The notes: generated from the sequence alone by a model not told the origin. Positions 20,823-36,268 are shown, numbered from the stretch's first letter. The stretch is 64,000 nt of DNA from an uncultured Rickettsiales bacterium (GCA_964639985.1 CAZXHG010000011.1:7871-71870), one strand, 5' to 3'. A program made the numbers and translations.

Positions 20823-23800
20823 TCAGCCGCCCCGTCTGCCGGTCACCTGCTCACCCGCGAACCGGCCGATCTCGGTCTCGAGGTGGGTCAACGCCGCGGC
20901 GAGGTCCGTGTCATCCCCGTCGGCGCACACGCGCTGCAGGCCGGCGGCGGCGGCGGCCACGCCCTCGTCCCGGAGCTGGCCCGCCATCCCGCGCAGGCGC
21001 CCGGCCAGTTCGACCAGGGCCCTGCGATCCGATCGGTCCGCCGCCCTGCCAGCCCGCGCGAGGAGCTGGGTGCAGTCCTTGAGCACCTGGCGCGTCGCCT
21101 GGTCGAGCAGGGAACGGCTCTCGTCCACCCGCGCCAGCAGCTCGATGGTGCTCGTCGCCTGGGAAAAGGCCGCGGAGGGGGCGGGCGACGCCTGCTCGCG
21201 CTCGGGCGGGAAGAACCTCTGTAGCTCCCCGGCCAGCACCCTGGGCTTGATCGGCTTGGACACGTACCCGTCCATGCCTGCGTCGAGACAGCGCTCCCGG
21301 TCTCCCTTCATGGCGTGGGCCGTCATGGCCACGATTGGGGTGTGCCCCCCCTCGGTCGCCTCCCGCTCTCGGATCGCGGCCGTGGCCTCGAGGCCGTCCA
21401 TCTCGGGCATCTGTACGTCCATCAGCACCAGGTCGAAGCCGCCGCTGCGCCACGCGTCGAGCGCGGCCCGGCCGTCCTTGGCGTGCACGACGTCGTGGCC
21501 CCGCTTGCCCAGGACCCGGGTGGCGAGCTTGGCGTTGACCGCGTTGTCCTCGGCGAGCAGTACGCGCAGCGGCGGCTCCTTGGCCGCGGCCGCCGGCCTT
21601 GACGAGGGCGCCCGACCAGTGCCGACCGCGGGGCCGTCGCGACGCACCCCCAGCACCTCGCGCAGCGCCTCCAGCAGGCGTGTCTGGTGGATCGGCTTGG
21701 CCATGTAGCGGGCCACGCCCAGTTCGGTGCGCTGCTCCTCGGACAGGCTCGTGCCTATGGAGGACAGCATCATCACCGTGGGGTGGCCGTAGCGGTCGTC
21801 CGCCTTCAATCTGCGCGCGACCTCGAAACCGTCGATCCCCGGCATCTGCACGTCCAGCAGCACCAGCCGGATCGGGCGCTCGGCCGCCAGGGCGTCGGCC
21901 GCCCGCGCGAGCCCTATCTCGCCGTCCTCGGCAGCCAGGGGCACCATCCCCCAGCTCGTCAGCGCCTCCTCCAGCACGCGTCGATTGGTCGCGTTGTCGT
22001 CCACGATCAGCACCTGCAGGTCGCGCAGGGCTTCCAGGCTCGCCGGCTCGACGCGCGCCGCCGGCTCGGCTGGCTTGCCGAAGTCCGCGGTGAAGCTGAA
22101 CGTGCTGCCCTCGCCGAACACGCTGTCCACGGCGACGGCGCCGCCCATCATGCCCACCAGCTGGCGGGTGATGGTCAGGCCCAGGCCCGTGCCGCCGTAG
22201 TGGCGCGTGGTGGAGCCGTCCGCCTGGGTGAAGGACTCGAAGATCGCGTCCTGCTTGTGCAGGGGGATGCCGATGCCCGTGTCGCTCACCGAGAATTGCA
22301 GCCGGAATCCGTCGTCGCGCCGCGCCTCGGGGTCGACGCGGATCACGATCTCGCCCTCGGTGGTGAACTTGATCGCGTTGCCGCCGAGGTTGATCAGGAT
22401 CTGGCGCAGCCGCCCGGGATCGCCCACGATGCTGTCGTCGATGCCCGGGCGGATGTGGGTGATCAGCTCCAGGTCCTTCTCCCGGGCCCTGGGCAGTAGG
22501 GACTTCAGCGACCCGTCGACCACGTCCCGCAGGCTGAACGGGATGTGCTCGAGCTCCAGCCGGTCCGCCTCGATCTTGGAGAAGTCGAGGATGTCGTTGA
22601 TCAGGTCCAGCAAGGCGTCGGCCGACGAGCGCACGATCTCCAGGTACTCCCGCTGCTCGGCGTCCAGGGTGGTGTCCAGGGCCAGCTCGGTCATGCCGAT
22701 GATGCCGTTCATCGGCGTGCGGATCTCGTGGGACATGTTGGCCAGGAACTCGCCGCGCGCCTTGTTGGCCCGCTCGGCCTCGTCGCGGGCCACGGCCAGC
22801 TGCTCGTTGAGCTGCTTCTGTGTCTGGAGGGCCTCGGCCATGCCGCGGCTGAGCTCCTCGGCCTCCCTCCGGGCCTGGACCAGCGCGGTCACGTCGACGA
22901 CGTTGAGCAGCACGCCGTCATAGGTGTCGTTGCGGTAGATGGGCTGCACCCGGAGGATCATGTGCTTGCCCCCGATCTCCCGCTCGATCACCACCGGTTC
23001 GGAGCCCACGTCGGAGCGGAAACGGTACAGCAGGCTGTACAGCTGGTTGCTCGCGTCGCCGTCGTGGAAGTCCCACAGCGTGTGGCCGACGAGCTTGTGG
23101 CGGGGCAGGTCCATCAGCTCCAGGAAGTAGCGGTTGACCTCGATGATCAGGTCGTTGCCGTCCGCGAAGACGATGCCCTCCTCCATGCCCGTGATCATGG
23201 CCTGGAGCTTGGCCGTCTCCCGCTGCAGCACGTCGGCTGCGGCTCGGCTGGCCGCCTCCATGGCCCGCTTGCGGGTGGTGATGTCCTCGGACATCTCCAC
23301 GGCCGCCACCACGTCGCCAGCCTCGTCCAGGATCGGGGACGCCACCGTGCGCAGGATCCGCGGTTCGCCGTCGATGACCTCGGTGCGCTCGGTCTCGTGG
23401 ATCTGGCCGTCCTCGAGCGTGGCCAGCACGGGGCAGCGGTCACAGGGCTCGGCGCGTGGAGGGTCGTGGAACGCCGTGTAGCAGTGGGCCCGAACGCCGA
23501 TCTTCACGTCCGGATGGCGGTCCCGCAGCTGTCGATTCAGCGCGAGGATGTCGAGGTCGCGGCCGAGCACGGCGATGCCGAAGCCGAGTTCGTCCACGAT
23601 GCGTTGCTGCCAGGGGCCGATGGCCAGCCCGGTCAGGGTGTCGTCCGACATGGACACCGAAGCGATCTCGCCGGCCGCCTCGCCCACCGACGGCTCGGCG
23701 AGGAACAGCGCGAGCGAAGCGTGGCTCCCCTCCTCGACAGGGGCGATGCGGCAGTCGAGCATCCGCTTGCCGCCACCGTCCATGCGGATCAGCGCGGTCC

Positions 23801-24026
23801 GGTCCCGGACCTGGCCGTCGTCGAGCGCCTTGCGAGCGGCTGCCACAACCGGGGTTCCACCCCATCGCTCGCTGCCCCAAAGGTTCTCCAGGTCCAGCTG
23901 CTCGTGTGACGTGTCGAGCAGGCGCAACGCCCGGGCGTTGACGAACGAGCAGCAACCCGAGGTGTCGTACATCACCACGCCCACGGGCACGGCTGCCCAC
24001 AGCGCGTGATCCTGGTGGTCGGACAT
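20823..24026 (-). CDS. large hybrid sensor histidine kinase (PAS/GAF-like, HisKA-HATPase, 2x REC, C-terminal Hpt-like)
   Basis: true ATG at 24024-24026 after AGGAGGGA; H-box [12 protein letters not shown]; two receivers (LIVDDN, LLAEDN); the upstream 797 aa of the track ORF are antisense of the STK-FGE gene. Confidence 0.85.
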
Positions 24027-24107
24027 GCGTCCCTCCTGCGTGAGTGCAAGAGTATCGAAACCCGCGCATGCCGGCGCCGGTTTCGTTACCTCCGCGCGTG
24101 GAGGACA

Positions 24108-26558
24108 ATGGAGATCGAGGCAGCCATGGATCGTTACGAGGACCTGGGACCGATCGGCGGCGGCGGCATGGGCGAGGTGCGGCGGGTGCGGGAGCGCGCG
24201 CTGGGCCGGGTGCTGGCGATGAAGATCGTGCGCGCCGAGCTGGTGGACGATCCGGCGCTGCACGCGCGCTTCGCCGAGGAGGCGCGCATGACCGCGTGGC
24301 TGCAGCACCCGGCGATCATCCCGGTGCACGACGTGGGCCGGCTGGACGACGGTCGGCTGTACTACACCATGCCCGAGGTGCACGGCCGCACCCTGACCGA
24401 AGCCATCGCCGAGGTGCACGACGCGGTGCAGGACCGCACGTGGCGGCCCGCTCCCGACGGCCTCACGTTTCGCGGCCTGGTCGAGTCCTTCCGCCGTGCG
24501 TGTGACGCGGTGGCCTACGCGCATGCCCACGGGGTGGTGCACGGGGACCTCAAGCCCGACAACCTGATGCTCGGGCCCCACGGCGAGGTGTTCGTGCTGG
24601 ACTGGGGTCTGGCGCGCGTCGTGCGGTACGACCGGGGAGCCCCCGGGCCCGAACCCGCGGCCGCCTCGCTGCTGGACCTGGCCGAGCTCCCCGAGACCGA
24701 ACCGCGAATCGGGGGGACGCTGGCCTACATGGCCCCGGAGCGGCTGTGGAGCCCGGAGCTGGAGCAGTCCGCAGACGTGTACGCGCTCGGTGCGCTGCTG
24801 TACGAGCTGCTGGTCGGCGAGCCGCCGTACGGTCGAGAGGTGACGCAGGGATCGTTGCTGCAGCGGGTCGCCTCCACGGCGCCAGCGCCCGTACGGCTGG
24901 CCGCCGGTGAGCGGGAGAGGCCCGCTCTGCCGGATGTGCTGGCCGACGTGGTCGAGGCGGCCATGCGCCGGGAGGCGGACGATCGGCTCGAGGGGGTCGC
25001 GGCGCTCGGCGACGACGTGGGGGACTGGCTCGAGGGGACCCGCCAGCTGCAGCAGGCCGAGGAGCTGGTCGCGGGCGCCCGCAGGGCGCGGGACGAGCTG
25101 GCCGAGGTGCGCGGTGAGGCGAGCCAGCGGCGCGAGCTGGCCGCAACCCTGCTGGCGGCCCTGCCGGCGCAGGCGCCGGTGGAGGACAAGGCCGAGGCCT
25201 GGGACCTCGAGGCGGGTGCGGCCTCGTCCGAACGCTGGGCCGCGCGGCTCGAGGCGGAACTCACCGAGGACCTGCGCGCCGCGCTGGCCCTGGTGGAGGA
25301 CCTGTCCGAGGCTCACGAGATGCTCGCAGAGCACTTCAGGCAGAAGCACCAGGCGGCCGAGGAGTCGCGTGACCTGCTGGCCGCGGAGCGTTTTGCCGTG
25401 CGGCTGCGGCACCACGATCGACCCGGGCGGTTCGTGCGCTACCTGCAGGGGGATGGTGCCCTGACGCTGGTCACGGCCCCACCCGGGGCGCGCGCCGAGC
25501 TGTTCGAGGTGCAGCGGGAGGGACGGCGGCAGGTCCTGCGCCGGGTACGCGATCTGGGCACCACCCCCCTGGTGGAGGTCCCCCTGCCCATGGGCAGCTA
25601 CGTGGTCCGTCTGCGGGCCGAGGGGTGTGCGGAGGTGACCTACCCGGTGCACGTGCGTCGGGGGGAGCACTGGCACGGCCGGCAGCCGGGCGATGACGGA
25701 CCCTGGCCGGTCCTGCTGCCCGCGGAGGGGGAGCTGGAGGACGGCGACTGCTACGTGCCGGCCGGGTGGTTCGGCAGCGGCGGCGACCCCCACGCCCCGG
25801 GCAGCCTCCCCGCACGGCGGATCTGGCTCGACGCCTTCGTCATCCGGCGCGATCCGGTGACTCACGCCGAGTTCGTCGCCTTCCTCGACGACCTGGTCGG
25901 CCAGGGTCGGGAGGGAGAGGCCCTGTCGCTGGCCCCCAGGCTGGGCAGCTCCCCGGGCAGCGGAGAGGGGGAGCTGCTGTACGGTCGGTCTCCTGACGGA
26001 TGCTTCACGCTGGATGGAGGCGTCGCTGCCCTGCCGGTCACGCCGGACCGGCCCGTGGTCTGCGTGTCGTGGCGGGCGGCCGCCGAGTACGCGCGCTGGC
26101 TGATCCTGAACAGCTTCCGCGGCTGGCGGCTGCCTGGTGAGCTCGAGTGGGAGAAGGCCGCCCGCGGCGTGGACGGCAGGTTCTTCCCCTGGGGCGACCA
26201 CCTGGACCCGGGCTGGTGCTGCATGCGCGACAGCCACCCCACCCACCCGGGCATGGCCGCGGTCGGGGATTTCCCGGTGGACTGCAGCCCCTACGGCGTG
26301 CGCGGCATGGCCGGCAACGTGCGCGACTGGTGCCTGGACGCGTTCCGCCCGGATGGCCCCGAGGTGGTGGACGGCGGCTGGTTCCCGGCCGGTGACCCGC
26401 CCGACGGCGTCCCTCACGTGGGCCGCGGTGGCACGTGGTGCGTCAACCCGGTCGGACTGCGCGCGGCCTACCGCGCCTGGTTCGCGCCCACCTTCCGCGC
26501 GGACGATTCCCTGGGATTCCGCCTCGCCTGCTCGTACCCGGACGACTGGAACCAGTAG
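24108..26558 (+). CDS. Ser/Thr protein kinase fused to formylglycine-generating-enzyme (FGE/SUMF1) domain
   Basis: GxGxx[28 protein letters not shown]; C-terminal FGE-like block with [13 protein letters not shown]. Confidence 0.85.
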
Positions 26559-26615: not shown

Positions 26616-28145
26616 ATGAACTCGACCCCACACGAAGACATCGAACGCATCCGCACCGAGCGGGACCTGTTCCTGCGGCTGCTGCAGCTCAGCGGCCAGG
26701 AGGATCTGCACGGGTTCCTGCGCAGCTCCCTGGACCTCGTCCTGGAGCTGACGGGCGCGCGCAAGGGCTACCTGGAGCTGTACACCGAGGAGGACGGCCC
26801 CCCGCGCTGGTCCCTGGCCTTCGGCTGCACCGAGGACGAAGTCGAGGGGATCCGCGAGGCCATCTCCCACGGCATCATCGCCCGCGCCATGGCCTCGGGC
26901 GAGACCGTGTCCACGGCCTCGGCCCTGAACGATCCGCGCTTCGCCGAGCAGGCGTCGGTGCAGTTCAACAAGATCATGGCCGTGTTGTGCGCGCCCATCG
27001 GCGGTGGGGACGGCGAGGCTCCGATGGGCGTGCTGTACCTGCAGGAGCGCGCCAAGATCGGTCCGTTCGACAAGCAGGACAAGCACTACGCCGAGCTCGT
27101 CGCTCGTCATCTCGCGCCCCAGGTGGACCGCCTGCTGCTCAAGCAGCACGCCCTGGACCAGGCCGATCCCACCCGGCCCTGGCGGGACAAGCTCGACATC
27201 GACGGCTTCGTCGGCGCCAGCCAGCCCATCGCGGACGTGCTGCGCACCGTGGCCCTGGTCGCACCCCTGGACATGGGTGTGCTGATCACCGGCCCCACCG
27301 GCACGGGCAAGTCGGAGATCGCGCGCGCCATCCACCGCAACAGCCCGCGTGCGTCCGGGCCGCTGGTGGAGATCAACTGCGCCGCCATCCCCGACACCCT
27401 GGTGGAGAGCGAGCTGTTCGGGGCCATGCCCGGGGCCGCCTCCGGGATCACCAGGAAGATGGAGGGCAAGGTCAGCGCAGCCGAGGGGGGCACCCTGTTC
27501 CTCGACGAGATCGCGGAGCTGCCGCTGCAGTCCCAGTCCAAGATCCTGCAGCTGCTGCAGTCCCGCGAGTACTATCGCCTCGGCTCGTCCCGACCCGAGG
27601 TGGCCGACATCCGCATCGTGGCGGCCACCAATCGCGATCTCGACGAGGCGGTGGCCGAGAAGCACTTCCGCGAGGATTTGTATTTCCGTCTCAACGTGGT
27701 GCCGCTGCGCATGCCCGGTCTGGCCGAGCACCCCGAGGACGTGCCGCTGCTGGCCGACTTCCTGCTGGAGCGCGCGGTGCGCAAGTACCGGCTACCCCGC
27801 CTGCGCCTCAGCCCGGCCGCGGCCGTGGCCATGACGTCCGCGGAGTGGCCGGGCAACGTGCGCGAGCTGGTCAACACCCTCGAGCGCGCCGCGGTCATGG
27901 CCGCGGGCGACGCCTCACCCACCATCGAGCCGGCGCACGTGTTCCCGGACCGCGCCGCACCCGAAGCGGACGAGCTTCCCGGCGACCTCACCTTCCAGGA
28001 GGCCACCCGCCGCTTCCAGCGCACGCTGATCGCCGACGCCCTGGCCGACACCGGCTGGAACGTATCCGAGACCGCGCGGCGCCTCGGCCTGGCCCGCTCC
28101 TACCTGTACGACCTGATCAACGCTCACGGCCTCCAGCGGAGCTGA
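26616..28145 (+). CDS. sigma-54-dependent Fis-family transcriptional activator (GAF-AAA+-HTH) with degenerate GAFTGA loop
   Basis: Walker A GPTGTGKS; ESELFG followed by AMPGAASG instead of HEKGAFTGA; C-terminal Fis HTH. Confidence 0.85.
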   Translation: MNSTPHEDIERIRTERDLFLRLLQLSGQEDLHGFLRSSLDLVLELTGARKGYLELYTEEDGPPRWSLAFGCTEDEVEGIREAISHGIIARAMASGETVSTASALNDPRFAEQASVQFNKIMAVLCAPIGGGDGEAPMGVLYLQERAKIGPFDKQDKHYAELVARHLAPQVDRLLLKQHALDQADPTRPWRDKLDIDGFVGASQPIADVLRTVALVAPLDMGVLITGPTGTGKSEIARAIHRNSPRASGPLVEINCAAIPDTLVESELFGAMPGAASGITRKMEGKVSAAEGGTLFLDEIAELPLQSQSKILQLLQSREYYRLGSSRPEVADIRIVAATNRDLDEAVAEKHFREDLYFRLNVVPLRMPGLAEHPEDVPLLADFLLERAVRKYRLPRLRLSPAAAVAMTSAEWPGNVRELVNTLERAAVMAAGDASPTIEPAHVFPDRAAPEADELPGDLTFQEATRRFQRTLIADALADTGWNVSETARRLGLARSYLYDLINAHGLQRS

Positions 28146-30765
28146 CGCCCCGCACCACGTGGAAGACGGGGAAGGTGCCGTAGCCCTTGGGGAGGGGCTG
28201 GGTGCCGGCGTATTCGCAGGTGAAGTCGTCGACGCCCTCGGCCGCGGCCAGGGCGGTGAAGGCGCGGGAGGCGTAGACGGTGCCGGCCGGGGTGATCTGC
28301 TCGATGCGGGCGGCGCGGCTGACGTGGGCGCCCATGAAGGTGAACTGGCCGGTGACCGGGTCGGTGAGGGCGTGGGTGGGGCCGGCGTGCAGGCCGACGC
28401 GGGTGCGGAGATCGGGGGGCATGCCGGCCTGCTCCCAGTCCGTGGCGCGGAACAGCTCGGACAGTTCCAGGGCGAAGAGGCCTGCGTCGCGGACGGAGAG
28501 GAAGACCATGTACAGGCCGTCGCCCCAGGTGTTGCGCACCACCGGCGCGTGGGCCGAGCGGTCGACGAGGGCGGCGATCTGGCCCAGGTGGTGCTCGGCG
28601 AAGCGGCGGAGCTGCACGTCGTCCAGCTGGCTGAAGCGGGCCGTGTCCGCGAACAACAGGGCCACGATGCGGTGGTCCGCGCCGTCGTCCGTTTCCGGCT
28701 CGTCGGCCGCTGCGTGGGGCAACGGCAGCACCGTGGGTTCGAGCTGGCGCTGCTGCCACAGGGCGATCGTGGCGGCGACGCCGTCCTCGCCCGGTCCGCC
28801 GCCGGACGCGGCGATCGGCACCACGGACGAGCCGAGGTGGCGGGCGCGGAAGGTGGCCAGCCCGAGAGCGACCCGTCGGGCGTAGTCCACGGCCGCGCGG
28901 TTCTGCAGGGCCTGGCGGCGGCCCATCACCTCCACGGTGGCGGCCTGTTCCAGGACCTTGTCGAAGCGCTGGCCCCAGCCCGGCGCCGTGGCCACGCGCT
29001 CGCGCCGGAACTCCTCCACCGGGCAGGGTAGGACGAGGTGCAGGTCACCACCGCGGGCGGCCATGGCCTCGGCGAACATCAGCTCCGCGCCGGCTGCGGC
29101 CGAGGTGTAGCCGTAGCGTGCGCCCGTGCGGTCGAGCTCGCGGGAGAGATGGTTGGCCAGCGCGATCTCCTCGGTCATGGACGAGGTCGGATCGTGGGCG
29201 TGCCGCACCGGCGCCACGAACAGGGCTACGGGTGGGGCAGGAGTCGGGTCCGGAAAACGGGTGGCACCTTCGTTCGCACCTTCGTTCGCAGCACCTTCGT
29301 TCGCACCTTCGTCCGTGACCTCGTCGTCGAATCCGGACAGTCGCCGCTGGTGCAGCAGGGCGCGGGCGCGGCCGGGGGCGCCTCCGGCTCGCAGGGCGGT
29401 GGCGAGCTGGGGGGCGAAGCGGTAGGAGGCCTGGGGCCAGCGGCCGAGGGCTTCGGTCAGGACCTCGGAGGCGAGCCAGGGTTCGCCTGCGGCGAGCAGG
29501 GCATCGGCGATGCGGCGGTAGAAGCCCGGGTTGAGGCGGGCCATGTTGGCGGGTCGGCCGTCCCAGATGGCCAGGAGGTCGGCGAGGCGGGTGGGGAGGG
29601 GGGCGGCGTCCCGCTCCATGCTGATCAGGGAATCGTCCAGGGAGATGCTGGCCGGTCCGCCGGCGGGTTCGCTGCCCAGCCGCTCCAGGGCCCAGCGGGA
29701 GAACATCCGGGAGCCGGCCACGAAGCGGTTGGTGCCCACCTCGCGGATCAGGCCGTTGACCAGCAGCTGGTCGAGGGCGTCCTCCACCCGGTCGACGTCG
29801 CCGCCGTAGATCTCGATGGCCGTGAACTTCTTGAACGGCTCGCGGGCGTGGGCGATCGGCCCGTAGAGCTGGCGTGCCTCGTCGCCGCACGACCCCCACC
29901 ACCGCTGGAAGTCGCCGCGTCGCTCCTTGAGGAAGCGCTGGCGGGCGCGCTCCAGCGCGTCGAGGTCCCCGCCGTCCTCCCAGAGCCTGCCCAGCAGGTA
30001 CTGGGCCAGGTAGGGGTGGCCGCCGACCTCGATGAGCAGCTCGCGTTCGGTGTCGGCCGGGAGGTCCTGGTCGAATCCGGCGCGCACCAGCTCCCTGACC
30101 GCGTCGTCGTCGATCAGCGCCATCTCCACGATGGTGACCACGTTGTAGAACGGCGATCCGGCCGTGCTCCACAGGTCCACGCTGGACAGTGTGCCGGCGA
30201 TGATCACGTTGAACCGTTGACGCAGCGCGCTCTGGCTGATCAGGAAGCGGGTGTTGGTGAAGAAGTCCTTGGACCACTCGTGCTGCCGCAGCTCGTCGAT
30301 CTCATCGAGCATGACGAACAGCTGCACCGTGTCGTCGAGGTCCATCACCTCCCGCAGCGTGTCCACGAAGTGCTCGAACGCGAAGTGCTCGGCCACCTCC
30401 CCGCCGCGCAGGTCCCGGATGGCCACGCCGAGCAGGTCCCGTGCCTCGGCGTGCAGCGAGCCGGAGGTGCGCAGCTCCGACAGGATGGCCGCGAACACGG
30501 CCGAGCGGGCCAGGCGGCCGAACTGCTGGGCGCTGAGCAGCACGGGCACCACCCGCAGCCCGGCGGCGGTCTCGGGCTGACGCCGCAGCTCGTGGGCCAC
30601 GCGCATCAGCAGGGAGGTCTTGCCGATGCGGGTCCCGCCGAGCACGGCAAAGGACTCGCCGCGGCGCGCGCGGCCCGCGATCTCGGCGACCTGGTCGTGG
30701 CGGCCGACGAACAGCGCCGGGCGGTCCTCGGGCTGGTCGAAGCGGTAGGGGGTCTCGCCGTTCAT
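28117..30765 (-). CDS. STAND/AAA+ NTPase, LOG/SLOG-like Rossmann domain and class III adenylate/guanylate cyclase fusion protein
   Basis: Walker A GGTRIGKTS, Walker B LFVMLDEIDE, GxP motif GGHPYL; central YGYTSAAAGAELMFAEAMAARGGDLHLVLP and SGGGPGEDG segments; C-terminal cyclase motifs LLFADTARFS, GDGLYMVF, RVGLHAGP, SRAARIE. Confidence 0.8.
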   Translation of the reverse strand: MNGETPYRFDQPEDRPALFVGRHDQVAEIAGRARRGESFAVLGGTRIGKTSLLMRVAHELRRQPETAAGLRVVPVLLSAQQFGRLARSAVFAAILSELRTSGSLHAEARDLLGVAIRDLRGGEVAEHFAFEHFVDTLREVMDLDDTVQLFVMLDEIDELRQHEWSKDFFTNTRFLISQSALRQRFNVIIAGTLSSVDLWSTAGSPFYNVVTIVEMALIDDDAVRELVRAGFDQDLPADTERELLIEVGGHPYLAQYLLGRLWEDGGDLDALERARQRFLKERRGDFQRWWGSCGDEARQLYGPIAHAREPFKKFTAIEIYGGDVDRVEDALDQLLVNGLIREVGTNRFVAGSRMFSRWALERLGSEPAGGPASISLDDSLISMERDAAPLPTRLADLLAIWDGRPANMARLNPGFYRRIADALLAAGEPWLASEVLTEALGRWPQASYRFAPQLATALRAGGAPGRARALLHQRRLSGFDDEVTDEGANEGAANEGANEGATRFPDPTPAPPVALFVAPVRHAHDPTSSMTEEIALANHLSRELDRTGARYGYTSAAAGAELMFAEAMAARGGDLHLVLPCPVEEFRRERVATAPGWGQRFDKVLEQAATVEVMGRRQALQNRAAVDYARRVALGLATFRARHLGSSVVPIAASGGGPGEDGVAATIALWQQRQLEPTVLPLPHAAADEPETDDGADHRIVALLFADTARFSQLDDVQLRRFAEHHLGQIAALVDRSAHAPVVRNTWGDGLYMVFLSVRDAGLFALELSELFRATDWEQAGMPPDLRTRVGLHAGPTHALTDPVTGQFTFMGAHVSRAARIEQITPAGTVYASRAFTALAAAEGVDDFTCEYAGTQPLPKGYGTFPVFHVVRGVSSAGGRER
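29266..29312. repeat. tandem 12/15-bp coding repeats (TTCGTTCGCA[GCA]CC) encoding the (G-A-N-E)n linker of the cyclase protein
   Basis: read directly; encodes GANEGAANEGANEGA. Confidence 0.7.
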
Positions 30766-33700
30766 GCCTCGATGTCCAGTCGCCGCACCCGGATGTACGT
30801 GCGCAGCAGCCTCATGGTGAACCGGTACTGGTCGCCGCGGCGATCCAGCAGGGAGAACTGCTCGAGGTTCTGCAGCTCGCGGTCGAAGCGGTCGGGATCG
30901 TCGAACAGCCGCGACGTGCGCTGCTGCAGTTCGGTGCGGGTGATGGCGCCGTCCTCGTCCGCGGCCACCGCGTCGAGGATCCCGCGCTGGAAGGAGTTGA
31001 GGTAGAAGCTGAGGATCTCGCCGAAGTACCCCTTCTTCAGGGTCAGGTAGCTCTCCGCGGCCACCCGCACCGTCTGGGCGTTGATCGTCACCGGCCGCTG
31101 GTCACCGGCGACCTTGGCCGTCTCCGAGCACAGCTGGCGGCAGACCATGGGGTGTCCGCCGCTGAGGTCGTACAGGGTGACCAGCGCGTCGTCGGTGAAG
31201 CCCAGGCCCATGCCCGCGCCGAGGTTGGTCACCATCTCCGCGGTCTCGGACGTGCTCAGCGGGCCCACGAACAGCTCGGACAGGTACTGGAAGATGGGGT
31301 TGTCGCGGCCGCCCCAGCGGCCCTGCAGGCACAGCCGGGCGTCCGCGCCGACCACGGCGAAGCCGAACACGTCGCGGAAGTCGGTCTGGTGCAGGCCGCG
31401 CAGCAGGCGGAAGAACGTGTCGTAGTGGGTGAAGCCGTCGTGGAAGTTGCCGCCGTCGAGTTCGTGGGGGATCAGGTGCTCGATCTCGTCGATCAGGAAG
31501 AACAACGTGGTGATGGAGGACGTCTCCAGGATGGCCGCGCGCAGGGTGCGCAGGTTGCCTTCGAACGCGACCATGGCCCCGGCCGGATCGTCCGGCAGCG
31601 GCGTCAGCTCCGGGCCCTCCACGTGCGGGAACTTGGCGGCCCAGTCCTCCAGGGCGCGGTCGCACAGCAGCTGGGCAAGGGAGAGGCAGGACGACGACGC
31701 CACCTCCTGCAGGTCGACCATGGCCACCACCGAGTCCGACAGGTGGGTGCGTAGCCGGTGGGCCAGCGAGGTCTTGCCCATCTTGCGGATGCCGAACACG
31801 CCGAACACCTCGCCCCGGTGCACCTTGCGCACCAGGGTGCGCAGCACCTGGCCGCGGCCGAAGAACTCGGCAGCGTCCAGCACCGGGTCCTTCTTGTCGA
31901 ACAGGTCCTCGCCGAGCAGCCACTGGGACCGCAGCTGGGTGAGCATGGCGCGGGTGCGGAAGTCGGCGACCGCGTCGCGCAGGGTGCGCTCGTCCAGGGG
32001 CAGCATGTGCAGCCGCGGCTGCTCGATCATGGAGGTCATGATCAGCTCGGTGGTGCCCGCGCTGGGCCGGGCCGCGCTGACCAGGACGGCCAGCCCCCGG
32101 GCCGTGCCGTCCCGGTCCTCCATGGAGCGACGGAAGTCCAGCACGTCCTCCGGGGACGGCGCGCGGTTGAGGTAGACCCGCACGCGCGCGTGATCCAGCT
32201 CCTTCCACCACCCGCTCAGGGGTGCGGCGGGGTGCACGAAGATCAGCTCGACCAGGCCGTCGCGGGTCTGCTGCAGCGGCCGGGCCTGCAGACCCAGGGA
32301 GGCGGCCAGCAGCTCGACCACGCCCACGGTGTCGAGGTCCTGCACCAGGGACGCGGCGTAGCGGCTGGCGAACGAACGGGTGTCCGGGATGTGGCTGGCC
32401 CGCTCCAGCGCGGTCAGGGCCAGGGTATGCCGGCCCAGCTTGCGGTGGATCCCGGTCAGCGCCAGCCACAGGAAGCCGTCGGCCGGGTTGCGCCGCGCGT
32501 ACTCCTCGAACGCGGCCTCCACGGCCTTGAGGTAGGGTACGGACTCGTCCACCGCGTCGGCCGAGGCCAGCAGCTGCTCGCGGCAGTCACGGTCCTCGAG
32601 CATGTCCACCACGGCCGAGGTGATCACCCCCACCTGTGGCTCGTCGGTCTCTTCGTAGAACTCCTTGAGCCGGTCGGCGATCATCGGGGCGAGATCCGGC
32701 CGCTGCTCGGCCACCTTGAGCAGGGCCGGGTAGAGGAACAGGATCCCGCCAGACGGGGGCGAGGCCCAGATGATGTGCTCCTCGAGGTCGGTCTCCAGCA
32801 GCGCGTCGGTCAGGCAATCCACGGCCTCGGCCGTGGGGTGCTCGGCCACGGCCTGCTCGGCGAACTCGATGGCCTTGCCCGCGTTGCCCGCGGCGAGCTC
32901 CATGCGGGCGAGCTGGACCATGAAGCGCAGGCGGGGGTCGGGCAGCGCCAGCGTGCGTTCGTACACGGATCGCGCCTCGTCGTCCGCCCGCGCCCGCTGG
33001 GCGTGGCCCAGCGCCAGCAGGGGCAGCAGCGGCGTGTCGGGATCGGAGCCCACCGAGCGGGCCAGGGTGGTGTAGAGGTCCTCCTCGACCAGGCCCAGGG
33101 TCTGCTGGGCCTCCAGCAGGCTGACGAGCTGGTCCGGCGACAGGTTCCGCACGGCGTCGAGCTGCAGCAGGATGTCCCGCACCCCCTGCATGTCCCCCAC
33201 GCGGGAGTAGTACTCGAACAGCCGCTGCAGCACCTCGGGCTCCCGCGGCCACTGGGAGCGGGCCTGCTCCAGCACGGCCCGCTCCTCGTGCGCGTTGGCC
33301 TCTCGCTTGTGGATGCGCGCCATCTGCAGGAAGGGTCGCTTCCACGCCGGCATGATCGTGGCCAGATAGGTGAATGCGGCGCGCGCGAGCTGGGACTTGC
33401 CCAGCGCCAGGAACAGGTCGCCCTGCAGCAGCACCACCAGCGCCAGCCCCACGGCCAGCGCCAGGGCGCCGAGCACCCAGCGACCCAGCGCGCCAACGCG
33501 CGCCTCCCGGTCCTGCTGCACGGCGATGTAGGTCTGCATCTCCTGGGCCTGGGGGTGCCACGGCTCCAGGGCCAGCACGGTCGCACACGCGGCATCGGCC
33601 GCCTCCCAGCGGTGGTCCTGCACGGCCTGCTGGCAGCGGGCGAACTCCCCCTCCACCCGGTCCGGATGGGCGGCCTGGCGGGCCCAGGCGCGGCGCCGGC

Positions 33701-34307
33701 TCAGCTCCCAGTCGTCGGGGTAGAACCGAAGCGCGGCCGTGGTCAGGGTCTGCACGTCCAGCGCGTACTCGTCGGTCAGCGGCCGTTGCAGCGCCAGCGA
33801 GCGCAGCTGCTGGCCGATGGCGTCGGTCCACGCGCGCAGCACGGCCGCGTCCGCGGGCAGGGCCTGCTGGGCGACGAACAGCTCGAGCTCACCCTGGCGG
33901 TAGTCCCCCTCGTCGAGCAGCCGCGTGCCCAGCACGTAGTGGGCCGTGGCCAGGTTGCCGGCCCGGTCGAACAGGCAGCCGTGGCCATGGTCCACGCCCA
34001 CGCCGATCACCTCGGCCACGGCCACGTCGCACAGGGGGTGGTCGGTCTCGGGCAACCGTTCGCGGCAGTCCGCACCGAACTCGTCCAGCGCCAGCGTGGT
34101 CACCGTCAGCCAGGCCTCGTGGGAGAACGAGTCCTCGGCCCAGCACGGCGACAGCTGGCTCACGCGGTCCAGCAGATCCGGATCGACCTCCGGGATCTCG
34201 ACCTGGGCCGCGGCGTGGCCGCCGAGGAGCAACGACAGCAGCAGCAGTGTGGGATGGAGCGATCGCCTCACACGGCGATCGTAGGGAGGTGGGGTGCGGG
34301 CGGTCAA
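30762..34307 (-). CDS. membrane-anchored STAND NTPase with periplasmic N-terminal domain, TPR-like region and C-terminal NTPase
   Basis: signal peptide ...GGHAAAQ, one TM (LGALALAVGLALVVLL); Walker A FGIRKMGKTS, Walker B LFFLIDEIEH, GGHPMV; TTG start at 34307 (alternative GTG at 34271); ATGA-type overlap with the cyclase gene. Confidence 0.75.
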   Translation of the reverse strand: MTARTPPPYDRRVRRSLHPTLLLLSLLLGGHAAAQVEIPEVDPDLLDRVSQLSPCWAEDSFSHEAWLTVTTLALDEFGADCRERLPETDHPLCDVAVAEVIGVGVDHGHGCLFDRAGNLATAHYVLGTRLLDEGDYRQGELELFVAQQALPADAAVLRAWTDAIGQQLRSLALQRPLTDEYALDVQTLTTAALRFYPDDWELSRRRAWARQAAHPDRVEGEFARCQQAVQDHRWEAADAACATVLALEPWHPQAQEMQTYIAVQQDREARVGALGRWVLGALALAVGLALVVLLQGDLFLALGKSQLARAAFTYLATIMPAWKRPFLQMARIHKREANAHEERAVLEQARSQWPREPEVLQRLFEYYSRVGDMQGVRDILLQLDAVRNLSPDQLVSLLEAQQTLGLVEEDLYTTLARSVGSDPDTPLLPLLALGHAQRARADDEARSVYERTLALPDPRLRFMVQLARMELAAGNAGKAIEFAEQAVAEHPTAEAVDCLTDALLETDLEEHIIWASPPSGGILFLYPALLKVAEQRPDLAPMIADRLKEFYEETDEPQVGVITSAVVDMLEDRDCREQLLASADAVDESVPYLKAVEAAFEEYARRNPADGFLWLALTGIHRKLGRHTLALTALERASHIPDTRSFASRYAASLVQDLDTVGVVELLAASLGLQARPLQQTRDGLVELIFVHPAAPLSGWWKELDHARVRVYLNRAPSPEDVLDFRRSMEDRDGTARGLAVLVSAARPSAGTTELIMTSMIEQPRLHMLPLDERTLRDAVADFRTRAMLTQLRSQWLLGEDLFDKKDPVLDAAEFFGRGQVLRTLVRKVHRGEVFGVFGIRKMGKTSLAHRLRTHLSDSVVAMVDLQEVASSSCLSLAQLLCDRALEDWAAKFPHVEGPELTPLPDDPAGAMVAFEGNLRTLRAAILETSSITTLFFLIDEIEHLIPHELDGGNFHDGFTHYDTFFRLLRGLHQTDFRDVFGFAVVGADARLCLQGRWGGRDNPIFQYLSELFVGPLSTSETAEMVTNLGAGMGLGFTDDALVTLYDLSGGHPMVCRQLCSETAKVAGDQRPVTINAQTVRVAAESYLTLKKGYFGEILSFYLNSFQRGILDAVAADEDGAITRTELQQRTSRLFDDPDRFDRELQNLEQFSLLDRRGDQYRFTMRLLRTYIRVRRLDIEA

Positions 34308-34325: not shown

Positions 34326-35750
34326 TCAGCCGGGGAACAGGTTGATCGGGAACACGGCCTCGTACTCCTCGCCCGTGGCCGGGAAGCTCCAGCGTTTGAC
34401 CCGGCGGCACAGGTCCAGGCCCAGGTCGCGGTTGCCCGTGGAGTTGGCCGACGTGGTCACCTCGATCACCTTGCCGTCCACGCCCACCAGCACCGTCAGC
34501 TCCACCTTGCCCGCGAGCTCGGGCTCGTCCTTGAGGTGGCGCTCGTAGATGTGCTGCACCTCGCCGGCGTGGCGGGACAGCACAGCGGCGACCGAGCCGT
34601 GGTCCACGCCCGGGTCCACGAACGGGTCCTCGGGCTCGATGATCGCGGTCACCGCGGCCTGGTCGCGGTCGGTGGTGCCCGTCTCGCCCGCGCCGAAACC
34701 CCCGTGCTCGCCGATGGTGCCGGCCGTGCCGTCCCCGCCGCCGGTGTGGCGGGTCGACTCGCGAGCGTCCGCCACCGTGGCGTTGCGGAAGCCATTGGAG
34801 CGGCCGATGGCCTCGTCGAGGTTGGCCTCGAGCGTTCCCGAGTCGGCCATCAGGTCCAGGGTGGCCGTGCCGTTGTTGTTGTCCGAGTTGGTCGGGATCA
34901 GGGCTGCGGCCAGGCCCATGCTGCGCAGCTGCTCCATGCGCTGCGCGCGCAGCTCCTCGGCCGACAGCTGCTCGCCGCCGTCGGCCAGCGCGTCGTCCTC
35001 GCCCGGGCCCGGCTCGCCCGGATCGTCCGCCTCGGCCGTGGCCGGGTCGTCCGTGGGCGTGGGGATGTCCAGGGTCGGCTCGTCGATGGGGTCCTCGGCG
35101 TCCGGGTCGATCTGCAGCATCTCGTCGACCACCTCCTCGGGCAGCCAGATCTCGGCGAACCGCTCCGGGATGTCGTCCAGACCCAGGTGGGGCGGTGGCG
35201 CGGGCCGCGACTGCAGGTAGGTGTAGCCCGCGATGTTGAGCACCGTGGACAGCACCACGAACGACCAGAACACCCAGTCCACCTCGGCCATGTTCATGGG
35301 GCTGAAGCTGACCGCCACCCGCCGGGGCTCCGGGGGCGCGGGCACGAACTGGAACAGCACCGTGGTGCCGCCGATGCGCACCTTGCCGCGGTTGCCGTCA
35401 GCGAGCTTGAGGTGGTGCACGCCGCGGCGCTGGGGCGTGGCGCCGGCCAGCCGCTCCAGGGTCTGCACGGTGCCGTCGATGAACACCTTGCCCTGCATCT
35501 TGCGGTCGAAGGCCAGGTGGTAGCCGTCGGCGCGGGCCACGAACAGCCGGTGGTGATCGGGCAGGTGCGAGGCGGGCAGCACGAACATGTTGTCCGCGGC
35601 CTCGCCCACGGTCACGCTACGGCCGCTGCGGATCAGCCGCTCCTCCACGATCCGCGGTCCCTGGATGATGCCGATGCGCAGGACCTTGCCGCGCGGGCGG
35701 TCCTTGCGGGACAGGCTGCGGGTCTTGCTGATGATGCCGTCGGTACCCAT
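34326..35750 (-). CDS. TonB C-terminal domain protein with N-terminal cytoplasmic beta-rich (FHA/PilZ-like) domain and acidic linker
   Basis: ATG after GGAGGAAACGACG; one TM; C-terminal KVELTVLVGVDGKVIEV...RWSFP matches TonB_C. Confidence 0.7.
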   Translation of the reverse strand: MGTDGIISKTRSLSRKDRPRGKVLRIGIIQGPRIVEERLIRSGRSVTVGEAADNMFVLPASHLPDHHRLFVARADGYHLAFDRKMQGKVFIDGTVQTLERLAGATPQRRGVHHLKLADGNRGKVRIGGTTVLFQFVPAPPEPRRVAVSFSPMNMAEVDWVFWSFVVLSTVLNIAGYTYLQSRPAPPPHLGLDDIPERFAEIWLPEEVVDEMLQIDPDAEDPIDEPTLDIPTPTDDPATAEADDPGEPGPGEDDALADGGEQLSAEELRAQRMEQLRSMGLAAALIPTNSDNNNGTATLDLMADSGTLEANLDEAIGRSNGFRNATVADARESTRHTGGGDGTAGTIGEHGGFGAGETGTTDRDQAAVTAIIEPEDPFVDPGVDHGSVAAVLSRHAGEVQHIYERHLKDEPELAGKVELTVLVGVDGKVIEVTTSANSTGNRDLGLDLCRRVKRWSFPATGEEYEAVFPINLFPG

Positions 35751-35917: not shown

Positions 35918-36268
35918 CTACCAGCTGGTGTCGTCGTCGCCGCCGGTGTCGTCGTCGCCGCCGGTGTCGTCGTCACCGGAGTCGGCGTACCACGCCGGCG
36001 CGCAGTCGTCGCCGCAGCCGCACTCGTCGACCAGTTCCCATTCCAGTACCGGATCACCGGCGCAGGAGTCCTGGGCCCAGGTCTCGCAGTCGTCGAGCGC
36101 GTCCGCCTCGGTGGTGCAGGCGCGGTTCTCGCCGTACGTGCCCTGGCAGGAGTAGAAGCAGCTGGCGAAGCTGCCGTCGTCGTCGTCTCCGCCGCCTCCG
36201 GCGCAGGCCCACAGGGCGAGGGGTAGGGCGATGGCGGTGATGATCAGCGCGGTCTTGAGGTGGGTCAT
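35918..36268 (-). CDS. small Cys-rich lipoprotein with (GGDDDT)3 tail
   Basis: lipobox LALWAC; 12 Cys; C-terminal tandem repeats. Confidence 0.55.
   Translation of the reverse strand: MTHLKTALIITAIALPLALWACAGGGGDDDDGSFASCFYSCQGTYGENRACTTEADALDDCETWAQDSCAGDPVLEWELVDECGCGDDCAPAWYADSGDDDTGGDDDTGGDDDTSW
35927..35980. repeat. 3 x 18-bp tandem repeat GGTGTCGTCGTCGCCGCC (coding, minus strand gives GGDDDT)
   Basis: read directly. Confidence 0.8.

Follow-up and report, generated by a model that had tools for sequence, protein, structure and literature searches.

A possible two-NTPase module with a SLOG-like/cyclase output subunit in an uncultured Myxococcota bacterium

Introduction

Fusions of STAND-type NTPases with cyclases producing cyclic nucleoside monophosphates (cNMPs) have been catalogued as predicted immune proteins ('Immune clade 1'; Pucsar preprint, 10.64898/2026.08.12.744502) and Kaur et al. 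2020 (PMC7159879) list cyclase effectors among the components of NTP-dependent conflict systems. The subject of this report is a gene for an 882-amino acid (aa) protein with an NTPase module, a SLOG-like middle domain and a C-terminal class III cyclase homology domain. It is found in a 64,000-nucleotide stretch of DNA (GCA_964639985.1, CAZXHG010000011.1:7871-71870, the whole of which is referred to below as the window). The protein is a variant of these catalogued, uncharacterised fusions: like them it carries a class III cyclase and a STAND-type NTPase on one polypeptide and like them it is a predicted immune or conflict protein which has not been characterised experimentally. No catalogued STAND-cyclase fusion is described with a SLOG domain or with a paired membrane NTPase, both of which are features of the locus described here.

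The mycobacterial Rv0386-type proteins are composed of an N-terminal class III cyclase, an AAA_16-type STAND ATPase, TPRs and a LuxR DNA-binding output. They resemble the 882-aa protein in combining a class III cyclase, a STAND ATPase and TPR elements but differ in the N-terminal position of the cyclase (domain order was compared by inspection), in their DNA-binding output and in having neither a SLOG domain nor a paired membrane NTPase. The paired sensor/helper nucleotide-binding leucine-rich repeat receptors (NLRs) of plants provide a comparison of working principle alone: the bacterial sensor partner is membrane-anchored and its interaction with the output subunit is presumed. The Bacillus subtilis SLOG protein YpsA (PDB 2nx2) is 11% identical to the middle domain, without a sequence-profile relationship; it occurs as a stand-alone protein and has been connected with cell division (PMC6459960).

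Other points of comparison come from TIR-dependent systems. Thoeris effectors include ThsA (SIR2-SLOG) and ThsI (a CMP-hydrolase with TPRs), whereas the output of the 882-aa protein is a cyclase rather than a SIR2 or hydrolase domain. Its sensor elements are, moreover, truncated or remodelled, and neither its locus in the window nor the orthologous loci include a TIR gene, such as the ThsB-type gene found in the same operon in Thoeris. Similarly, neither a PADLOC scan nor the called neighbours of the locus revealed an adjacent gene for an effector carrying a cyclic nucleotide-binding domain (CNBD) and a TIR, or three transmembrane segments, as in Pycsar and Pucsar. ThsI, the effector of type VIII Thoeris, contains a TPR-S region, responds to canonical cyclic ADP-ribose (cADPR) and its TPRs are presumed by the authors to be the sensor; TPR-S, in a prediction made by Aravind's group, acts in TIR-mediated signalling (10.64898/2025.12.03.692087). 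A preprint citing papers from the Aravind laboratory mentions 'YspA-Tpr' assemblies. A literature search for the combination of SLOG, cyclase and TPR-S found no paper, and the surveys which defined SLOG (2015) and TPR-S (2020) may list this architecture.

We present evidence that the 882-aa gene is one half of a conserved gene pair encoding two related NTPases, of which one is predicted to be membrane-bound. The interpretation that we prefer, in which we place even confidence, regards the 882-aa protein as the output subunit of a two-NTPase, lineage-restricted module of the Myxococcota.

Results and Discussion

The 882-aa gene

28117..30765, minus strand, stop codon included: gene for the 882-aa protein, with NTPase, truncated TPR-S, SLOG-like and cyclase regions (from translation of the open reading frame and 15 full-length homologs)

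The open reading frame (ORF) extends from an ATG at 30765 to a stop codon at 28117-28119. The window DNA is about 70% G+C, with long spurious ORFs in other frames. The 882-aa ORF is confirmed as a genuine gene and not a chance product of GC-rich DNA, because four metagenome contigs carry an identical called protein, because its motifs are kept in 15 full-length homologs (45-65% identity), and because it yields Pfam matches and confident AlphaFold models (predicted local distance difference test, pLDDT, of 89.0 for the NTPase and 87.5 for the middle domain). An earlier sequence-only reading of the same DNA had placed the gene and numbered its residues correctly, leaving the minus strand unstated, and had recognised the three modules, NTPase, SLOG-like and cyclase, all of which are real. 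Every motif that it quoted is present in the translation: GGTRIGKTS (G43-S51), LFVMLDEIDE (L149-E158) and GGHPYL (G248-L253) in the NTPase; YGYTSAAAGAELMFAEAMAARGGDLHLVLP (residues 551-580) and SGGGPGEDGVAAT (residues 654-666) in the middle domain, whose segment 28696-29232 encodes residues 512-690; and FADTARF (705-711), GDGLYMVF (748-755), RVGLHAGP (789-796) and SRAARIE (816-822) in the cyclase.

The protein is from an uncultured Myxococcota bacterium. The label 'uncultured Rickettsiales' attached to five metagenome-assembled genomes was rejected: the cluster members are Myxococcota in NCBI nr and the first gene of the locus (gene 1, below) has a myxobacterial AgmX/PglI tail. ORFs on the opposite strand, such as 29038-31005 (+), were treated as GC-rich artefacts. 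One called protein, P0170 (1210 aa, JGI), shares a 90% cluster with P0002 (851 aa) and is about 360 residues longer than this representative; either a fusion of gene calls or a variant architecture may account for the extra length.

A coupled membrane partner with a second NTPase

30762..34307, minus strand: partner gene 2, 1181 aa from a TTG start (1169 aa in the JGI call), whose stop codon overlaps the start of the 882-aa gene (ATGA)
33420..33476, minus strand: partner transmembrane helix (residues 278-296, Kyte-Doolittle 2.42)
30765..31880, minus strand: partner NTPase module (residues ~810-1181; BLASTP and tblastn)

The gene immediately preceding that of the 882-aa protein encodes a protein predicted to comprise a signal-peptide-like N-terminus, an extracytoplasmic region of ~240 aa, one transmembrane helix, a TPR array on the cytoplasmic side and an NTPase at the C-terminus. 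All 6 partner orthologs have one strong transmembrane helix in a comparable place (Kyte-Doolittle 2.2-2.5) and most have a signal-like N-terminus. The partner NTPase aligns with that of the 882-aa protein over 285 aa (BLASTP, 25% identity, E 1e-10), including the Walker A and B motifs and GGHP, and is its paralog. The 882-aa gene is translationally coupled to that of its membrane TPR partner: the two share an ATGA stop/start overlap with GAGG just upstream, and every homologous locus has a junction of the same tightness. This pairing speaks against the earlier idea that the 882-aa protein is a receptor acting on its own.

Both families are rare. The full NTPase fusion is limited to ~16 clusters among 5.8 billion proteins and to 5 of 185,579 species-representative genomes, and the partner family includes 14 clusters. 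The NTPase-SLOG-cyclase architecture, which might have proved to be a frequent and already characterised family, is therefore as uncommon as first supposed, and is uncharacterised.

The head of the second subunit is exchanged among sister modules

The closest NTPase-only relatives of the 882-aa protein have other domains at their C-termini: TIR_2 in P0020 (E 1e-16) and a Swt1-like HEPN (HEPN_Swt1) in P0017. Each of these genes immediately follows a gene 2 ortholog, only a few bases separating the stop codon of one from the start of the other, and the partners encoded by these TIR and HEPN loci are 40% and 50% identical to the window partner over nearly the full length of the latter. Overall, partner orthologs with 40-72% identity over nearly the full length precede NTPase-SLOG-cyclase, NTPase-TIR and NTPase-HEPN genes. 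Since TIR, HEPN and cyclase versions all occur downstream of the same partner family, the conserved core is a two-gene, two-NTPase module in which the head of the second subunit is interchangeable. A conflict or abortive-type role is favoured because the sister modules hold TIR or HEPN domains in the effector slot and also because relatives of the SLOG-cyclase portion are linked to TIR and nSTAND1 genes (see below).

The NTPase module

29671..30765, minus strand: AAA+/STAND-type NTPase core, helical lid and winged helix (residues 1-365)
30613..30639, minus strand: Walker A, GGTRIGKTS (residues 43-51; translation and homolog alignments)
30292..30321, minus strand: Walker B, LFVMLDEIDE (residues 149-158; translation and homolog alignments)
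30007..30024, minus strand: GGHPYL, a GxP-type motif in the lid (residues 248-253; homolog alignment; GGHPMV in the partner)

The N-terminal module includes both P-loop signatures, GxxxxGK[ST] and hhhhDE. Residues G48, K49, T50, D154 and E155 are invariant among the NTPase homologs, including the partner, and are conserved at a level of at least 90% in a second homolog alignment; G249, H250 and P251 are invariant in the homolog alignment of the 882-aa protein. Pfam AAA_35 matches residues 34-269 with 33.5 bits (cutoff 27), the nSTAND1 and NACHT profiles fall below their Pfam cutoffs, and an NTPase profile compared to PDB sequences recovered nothing beyond the P-loop of ABC ATPases. The AlphaFold model is composed of a core, a helical lid and a winged helix in the manner of a NOD-like module, and identifies residues 1-365 as a probable AAA+/STAND-type switch NTPase. 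No C-terminal repeat sensor of the TPR, WD40 or LRR kind accompanies the NTPase on its own polypeptide, which has only a TPR-S remnant of ~80 residues; the TPR array is carried by the partner protein and not by the 882-aa protein.

A truncated TPR-S and a remodelled SLOG-fold domain

29320..29565, minus strand: remnant of a TPR-S sensor scaffold (residues 401-482; custom profile, first ~80 of 231 positions)
29264..29315, minus strand: low-complexity (D/N)EGA linker with a 12/27-bp tandem repeat (TRF; a gap in all homologs)
28696..29235, minus strand: SLOG-fold domain with remodelled pocket residues (residues 511-690)

A TPR-S profile built from the region upstream of SLOG in 80 relatives matches the 882-aa protein (E 1.6e-14) along positions 2-82 of 231 (81 positions), whereas P0010, from a sister clade, covers positions 1-230. 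Two-thirds of TPR-S are deleted in the clade of the 882-aa protein. The (D/N)EGA linker, unique to this ortholog, is located exactly where the distal two-thirds are missing.

The predicted model of the middle domain has a Rossmannoid alpha/beta fold and finds its closest structural counterparts among SLOG members. At the sequence level the domain family is an orphan: residues 512-690 have no match in Pfam, NCBIfam or PADLOC scans, two versions of the domain gave no Pfam match at E up to 10, and a 20-sequence profile compared to all PDB sequences yielded only chance matches (E >= 1.4). Profiles provided no link to the described SLOG families (LOG, DprA, YpsA, LSDAT, LD clusters and TPALS). The resemblance to SLOG proposed from its glycine-rich motifs therefore holds for the fold and fails for the sequence, and it is solely the structure which overturns the lack of a match to any Rossmann profile. 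An ASK-type identity for the domain was rejected since the MAP3K_TRAF_bd match observed in relatives falls on the TPR region.

The wider SLOG-cyclase family shares the motifs sGH..., AACGADILFxEA and WDGxxGDGxGGT. From these the 882-aa protein retains G559 and G662 and has lost G518, H519, D561 (now E), W654, D655 and T663. Compared to 149 wider-family sequences, 32 of 52 conserved SLOG positions are kept, so that 20 are replaced, including G518A, H519P, D522H, R526P, R530M, D561E, S590R, N630R, W654S, D655G and T663V. In the model, most replaced residues would be located at strand C-termini or helix N-termini, the usual ligand crevice of Rossmannoid folds. The sister clade P0010-P0015 retains most of the signature residues together with a complete TPR-S. 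Several of the replacements are fixed within the clade of the 882-aa protein (E561 in 9/9, R590 in 8/9 and R630 in 9/9 sequences) and, for this reason, 'remodelled' is a safer description of the domain than 'dead'. Identity to the clade orthologs falls from 80-84% in the cyclase to 62-66% in the NTPase and 46-60% in SLOG, making the cyclase the most and SLOG the least conserved domain.

These observations bear on the view of the protein as an autonomous, receptor-like switch whose SLOG domain binds a nucleotide-derived ligand (e.g. of the ADPR/cADPR type) and gates the cyclase together with the NTPase. The SLOG fold itself, the proximity of TIR genes to SLOG-cyclase relatives and the conservation of the substituted residues within the clade, which is compatible with a new ligand, are in its favour, as is the binding of 3'cADPR by the SLOG domain of ThsA (10.64898/2025.12.03.692087). 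We nevertheless judge it unlikely: the signature residues at the strand ends (G518A to T663V) are replaced, TPR-S is largely deleted, SLOG is the least conserved domain, the locus has no TIR gene and the membrane partner is obligately coupled. Nucleotide sensing by SLOG, suggested by the sequence-only reading, is accordingly a weak proposition for this protein.

The cyclase domain

28150..28674, minus strand: class III cyclase homology domain (residues 698-872; Pfam, PDB profile and family residue counts)
Metal-binding Asp: D707 and D749
Phosphate-binding Arg: R789
Transition-state Arg: R820
Position of the adenine-specifying Lys: N745
Position of the Asp partner of this Lys: T809
Position of the transition-state Asn (N1025 of AC IIC2): S816

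Pfam Guanylate_cyc (PF00211) matches residues 699-841 with 23.2 bits (cutoff 21.9) and is matched by all 16 family members (best 2e-08). A family profile recovers the solved class III cyclases in PDB at E 1e-13, in agreement with the initial assignment of the C-terminus as a class III cyclase domain with both metal-binding Asp. Residues were mapped from HMMER alignments against AC5 C1/C2 and other cyclases. Retention across the wider family is 96% for D707, 94% for D749, 93% for R789 and 88% for R820, and this Asp/Asp/Arg/Arg set is kept in 16/16 NTPase-fused members; the 882-aa protein keeps 36 of 39 conserved cyclase positions, compared to 149 wider-family sequences.

The residues which determine specificity are different. 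The base-specifying pair is N745 and T809, rather than Lys/Asp as for ATP or a Glu/Cys-type pair as for GTP. Asn occupies the Lys position in 77% of wider-family sequences and in 16/16 NTPase-fused members. The transition-state Asn position is Ser in 47%, Asn in 17% and Thr in 15% of the wider family, and Ser in 16/16 NTPase-fused members. On alignment, the catalytic residues have therefore survived as far as the metal-binding Asp and both Arg are concerned, whereas the transition-state Asn and the base-specifying pair have been replaced. Production of a cNMP, as originally proposed, is plausible, but the base of the product is not predictable because of the Asn and Thr at the base-specifying positions and the Ser at that of the transition state. 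Judged by these residues the domain looks enzymatic, with a non-canonical substrate specificity, which makes its product worth identifying.

A distinctly unlikely alternative is that the domain is a pseudo-enzyme, a nucleotide-binding scaffold or a catalyst of another reaction (NTP depletion or formation of a non-canonical product). It draws on the same Ser and Asn replacements, on a Pfam score which just clears the cutoff and on the inactive cNMP cyclase domains of some conflict-system fusions (Kaur et al. 2020, PMC7159879). Such a loss of function does not sit well with the retention of the metal Asp, phosphate Arg and transition-state Arg in 88-96% of the family, with the position of the cyclase as the most constrained domain, or with the 17% of relatives which keep the transition-state Asn and give the family an enzymatic appearance.

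A widespread SLOG-cyclase family linked to TIR and nSTAND1 genes

In contrast to the NTPase fusion, the SLOG-cyclase combination is common. The middle-domain profile identified 3,757 cluster representatives (50% identity clusters, E up to 1e-3, 1.84 billion proteins) in Acidobacteriota, Cyanobacteria, Verrucomicrobiota, Gemmatimonadota and other phyla. A cyclase directly follows SLOG in 143 of 165 domain-bearing sequences, with a median linker of 8 aa, and nearly all the others are fragments. The typical architecture is [RyR]-TPR-S(PF20308)-SLOG-cyclase-[RyR/TIR], of 600-800 aa. SLOG and cyclase constitute an obligate two-domain module, normally a separate protein and usually preceded by TPR-S. 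What had been taken for a novel juxtaposition of the two is therefore a pre-existing module of some 3,757 clusters.

Among loci carrying an NTPase-less SLOG-cyclase gene, 42 of 71 have a TIR-like ORF nearby (34 within 1.5 kb and 23 within 300 bp). TIR-like ORFs account for 30 of 127 immediate neighbours versus 22 of the remaining 472 ORFs of these loci (odds ratio of 6.3 with p 1.5e-9; the 71 loci are not phylogenetically independent), and Pfam confirmed TIR_2/ThsB_TIR in representative neighbours. In ~19 loci the TIR gene is followed by one for an nSTAND1-TPR protein of 900-1,500 aa, and in a cyanobacterial locus an AAA_35-WD40 gene is located 16 bp downstream. The family escaped the Thoeris survey because PF00211-containing TIR systems were discarded there as presumed Pycsar (10.64898/2025.12.03.692087).

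Among loci L015-L089, a trio of TPR-S-SLOG-cyclase, TIR(-DUF4062) and nSTAND1-TPR recurs in Acidobacteriota and other phyla (for example, L015:1996-10884, L049:4991-10863 and L072:3768-9239). This trio has the look of a TIR-linked system, so far undescribed, whose output is a cyclase. Free-standing SLOG-cyclases frequently have a RyR domain at one end or the other (P0038, P0026, P0070, P0111 and P0129), and one of them has a C-terminal TIR/ThsB_TIR fragment; both are hints of nucleotide- or NAD-linked signalling.

A possible mechanism

Class III cyclases require dimerisation, as restated for PucC (10.64898/2026.08.12.744502). The domain identities, the pairing, the exchange of heads and the conservation patterns described above are observations; hetero-oligomerisation of the two NTPases, activation by dimerisation, the direction of the signal and the biological role are inferred. 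In the mechanism that we propose, a cue would be sensed by the TPRs of the membrane partner, by its extracytoplasmic region or by the two together, perhaps in concert with gene 1. The partner NTPase would then nucleate co-oligomerisation with the paralogous NTPase of the 882-aa protein, in the manner of sensor/helper NLRs, and the assembly would bring class III cyclase domains into head-to-tail dimers which cyclise a nucleotide. The SLOG-cyclase unit and its TPR-S scaffold may have been captured whole from the widespread family. Once wired to the NTPase, TPR-S would have been truncated and the SLOG pocket remodelled, with the cyclase remaining under the strongest constraint.

Several points weigh against this mechanism. 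Contact between the two NTPases is presumed. The replacements conserved in SLOG suggest that it may bind another ligand rather than none. S816 and the N745/T809 replacements make the catalytic rate and the substrate of the cyclase uncertain. A search of the window for a cNMP receptor with a crude regular expression for the phosphate-binding cassette (CAP-type) found none, and there is no CNBD among the called neighbours in the window locus and the orthologous loci. Finally, synteny with neighbours of a housekeeping type, preserved across orthologs at 54-63% identity, and the lack of any match at the locus in a PADLOC scan are unlike a mobile defence island.

This last observation raises the possibility, which we consider somewhat unlikely, that the same machinery serves a housekeeping rather than an immune or abortive function, with an envelope or extracellular cue perceived through gene 1 and the TPR partner and a cyclic nucleotide acting on transcription, for example through the GAF-sigma54 activator encoded next to the 882-aa gene. 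GAF domains can bind cNMPs. The gene for this activator converges on and overlaps the 3' end of the 882-aa gene in L001 and is kept near it in L005 and L008; the vertical synteny includes AMP-binding, sigma54 activator and Pkinase-FGE genes; and the predicted periplasm-facing partner and the TonB-C-type tail of gene 1 would suit envelope sensing. On the other hand, the TIR and HEPN of sister modules are typical toxic effectors, the SLOG-cyclase family has links with TIR and nSTAND1 genes, and the GAF activator, a candidate link, is absent beside P0010-type orthologs.

A broader form of the two-NTPase mechanism, tentative and on balance doubtful, would see the module as a membrane-spanning bacterial counterpart of sensor/helper NLRs, in which a periplasm-facing TPR-STAND protein recruits a cytosolic helper with a swappable head. 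The SLOG-cyclase family would relay TIR-made, NAD-derived signals to a cyclic nucleotide and the 882-aa protein would short-circuit this relay, NTPase control having replaced ligand control. 

If the two-NTPase interpretation that we prefer holds, the SLOG-cyclases would be a large, uncharacterised family tied to TIR and nSTAND1 and a candidate for a new, cyclase-output branch of TIR-dependent signalling. The Myxococcota module would in that case offer a natural experiment on the changes that sensor domains undergo after an effector has been hard-wired to a STAND switch, and the combination of a membrane STAND and an effector STAND would carry the sensor/helper logic known from plant NLRs over to bacteria and to extracytoplasmic sensing.

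Neighbouring genes

34326..35750, minus strand: gene 1, 474 aa (NCBIfam NF033768, 58.2 bits, cutoff 40; partial GltG match)

Gene 1 encodes an N-terminal domain of ~150 aa (residues 1-150, cytoplasmic, with no family match), a probable transmembrane segment, an acidic linker and an AgmX/PglI (GltG-like, TonB-C-type) tail. Among versions of the paired module, it accompanies those with a cyclase and not those with TIR or HEPN. The minus-strand run of three genes is syntenic in the orthologous contigs together with its flanks, an AMP-binding gene upstream and, downstream, a convergent GAF-sigma54 activator and a Pkinase-FGE gene.

The GAF-sigma54 activator-HTH_8 gene (26616-28145, +) has a 3' overlap of 29 bp with the 882-aa gene, and a role for its product as the cyclic-nucleotide receptor is speculative. 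In the P0010 sister clade, a K+-channel-like gene (Ion_trans and two TrkA_N/TrkA_C RCK pairs; L006:11141-12859 and L007:4310-6028) begins 18 bp downstream of the NTPase-SLOG-cyclase gene, in the same orientation, and is a possible downstream target.

Signalling genes are dense in the region 20823-26558, which includes a PAS-HisKA-HATPase-receiver hybrid kinase (~20823-24026, -) and, at 24108-26558 (+), a fusion of a Ser/Thr kinase with an FGE-sulfatase domain. A 1864-aa ORF at 20823-26417 (-) was rejected as a GC-rich over-extension. Just upstream of gene 1, a small unannotated ORF of 116 aa (~35918-36268) contains an 18-bp tandem repeat (2.9 copies, 97% match) at 35927-35984 (-).

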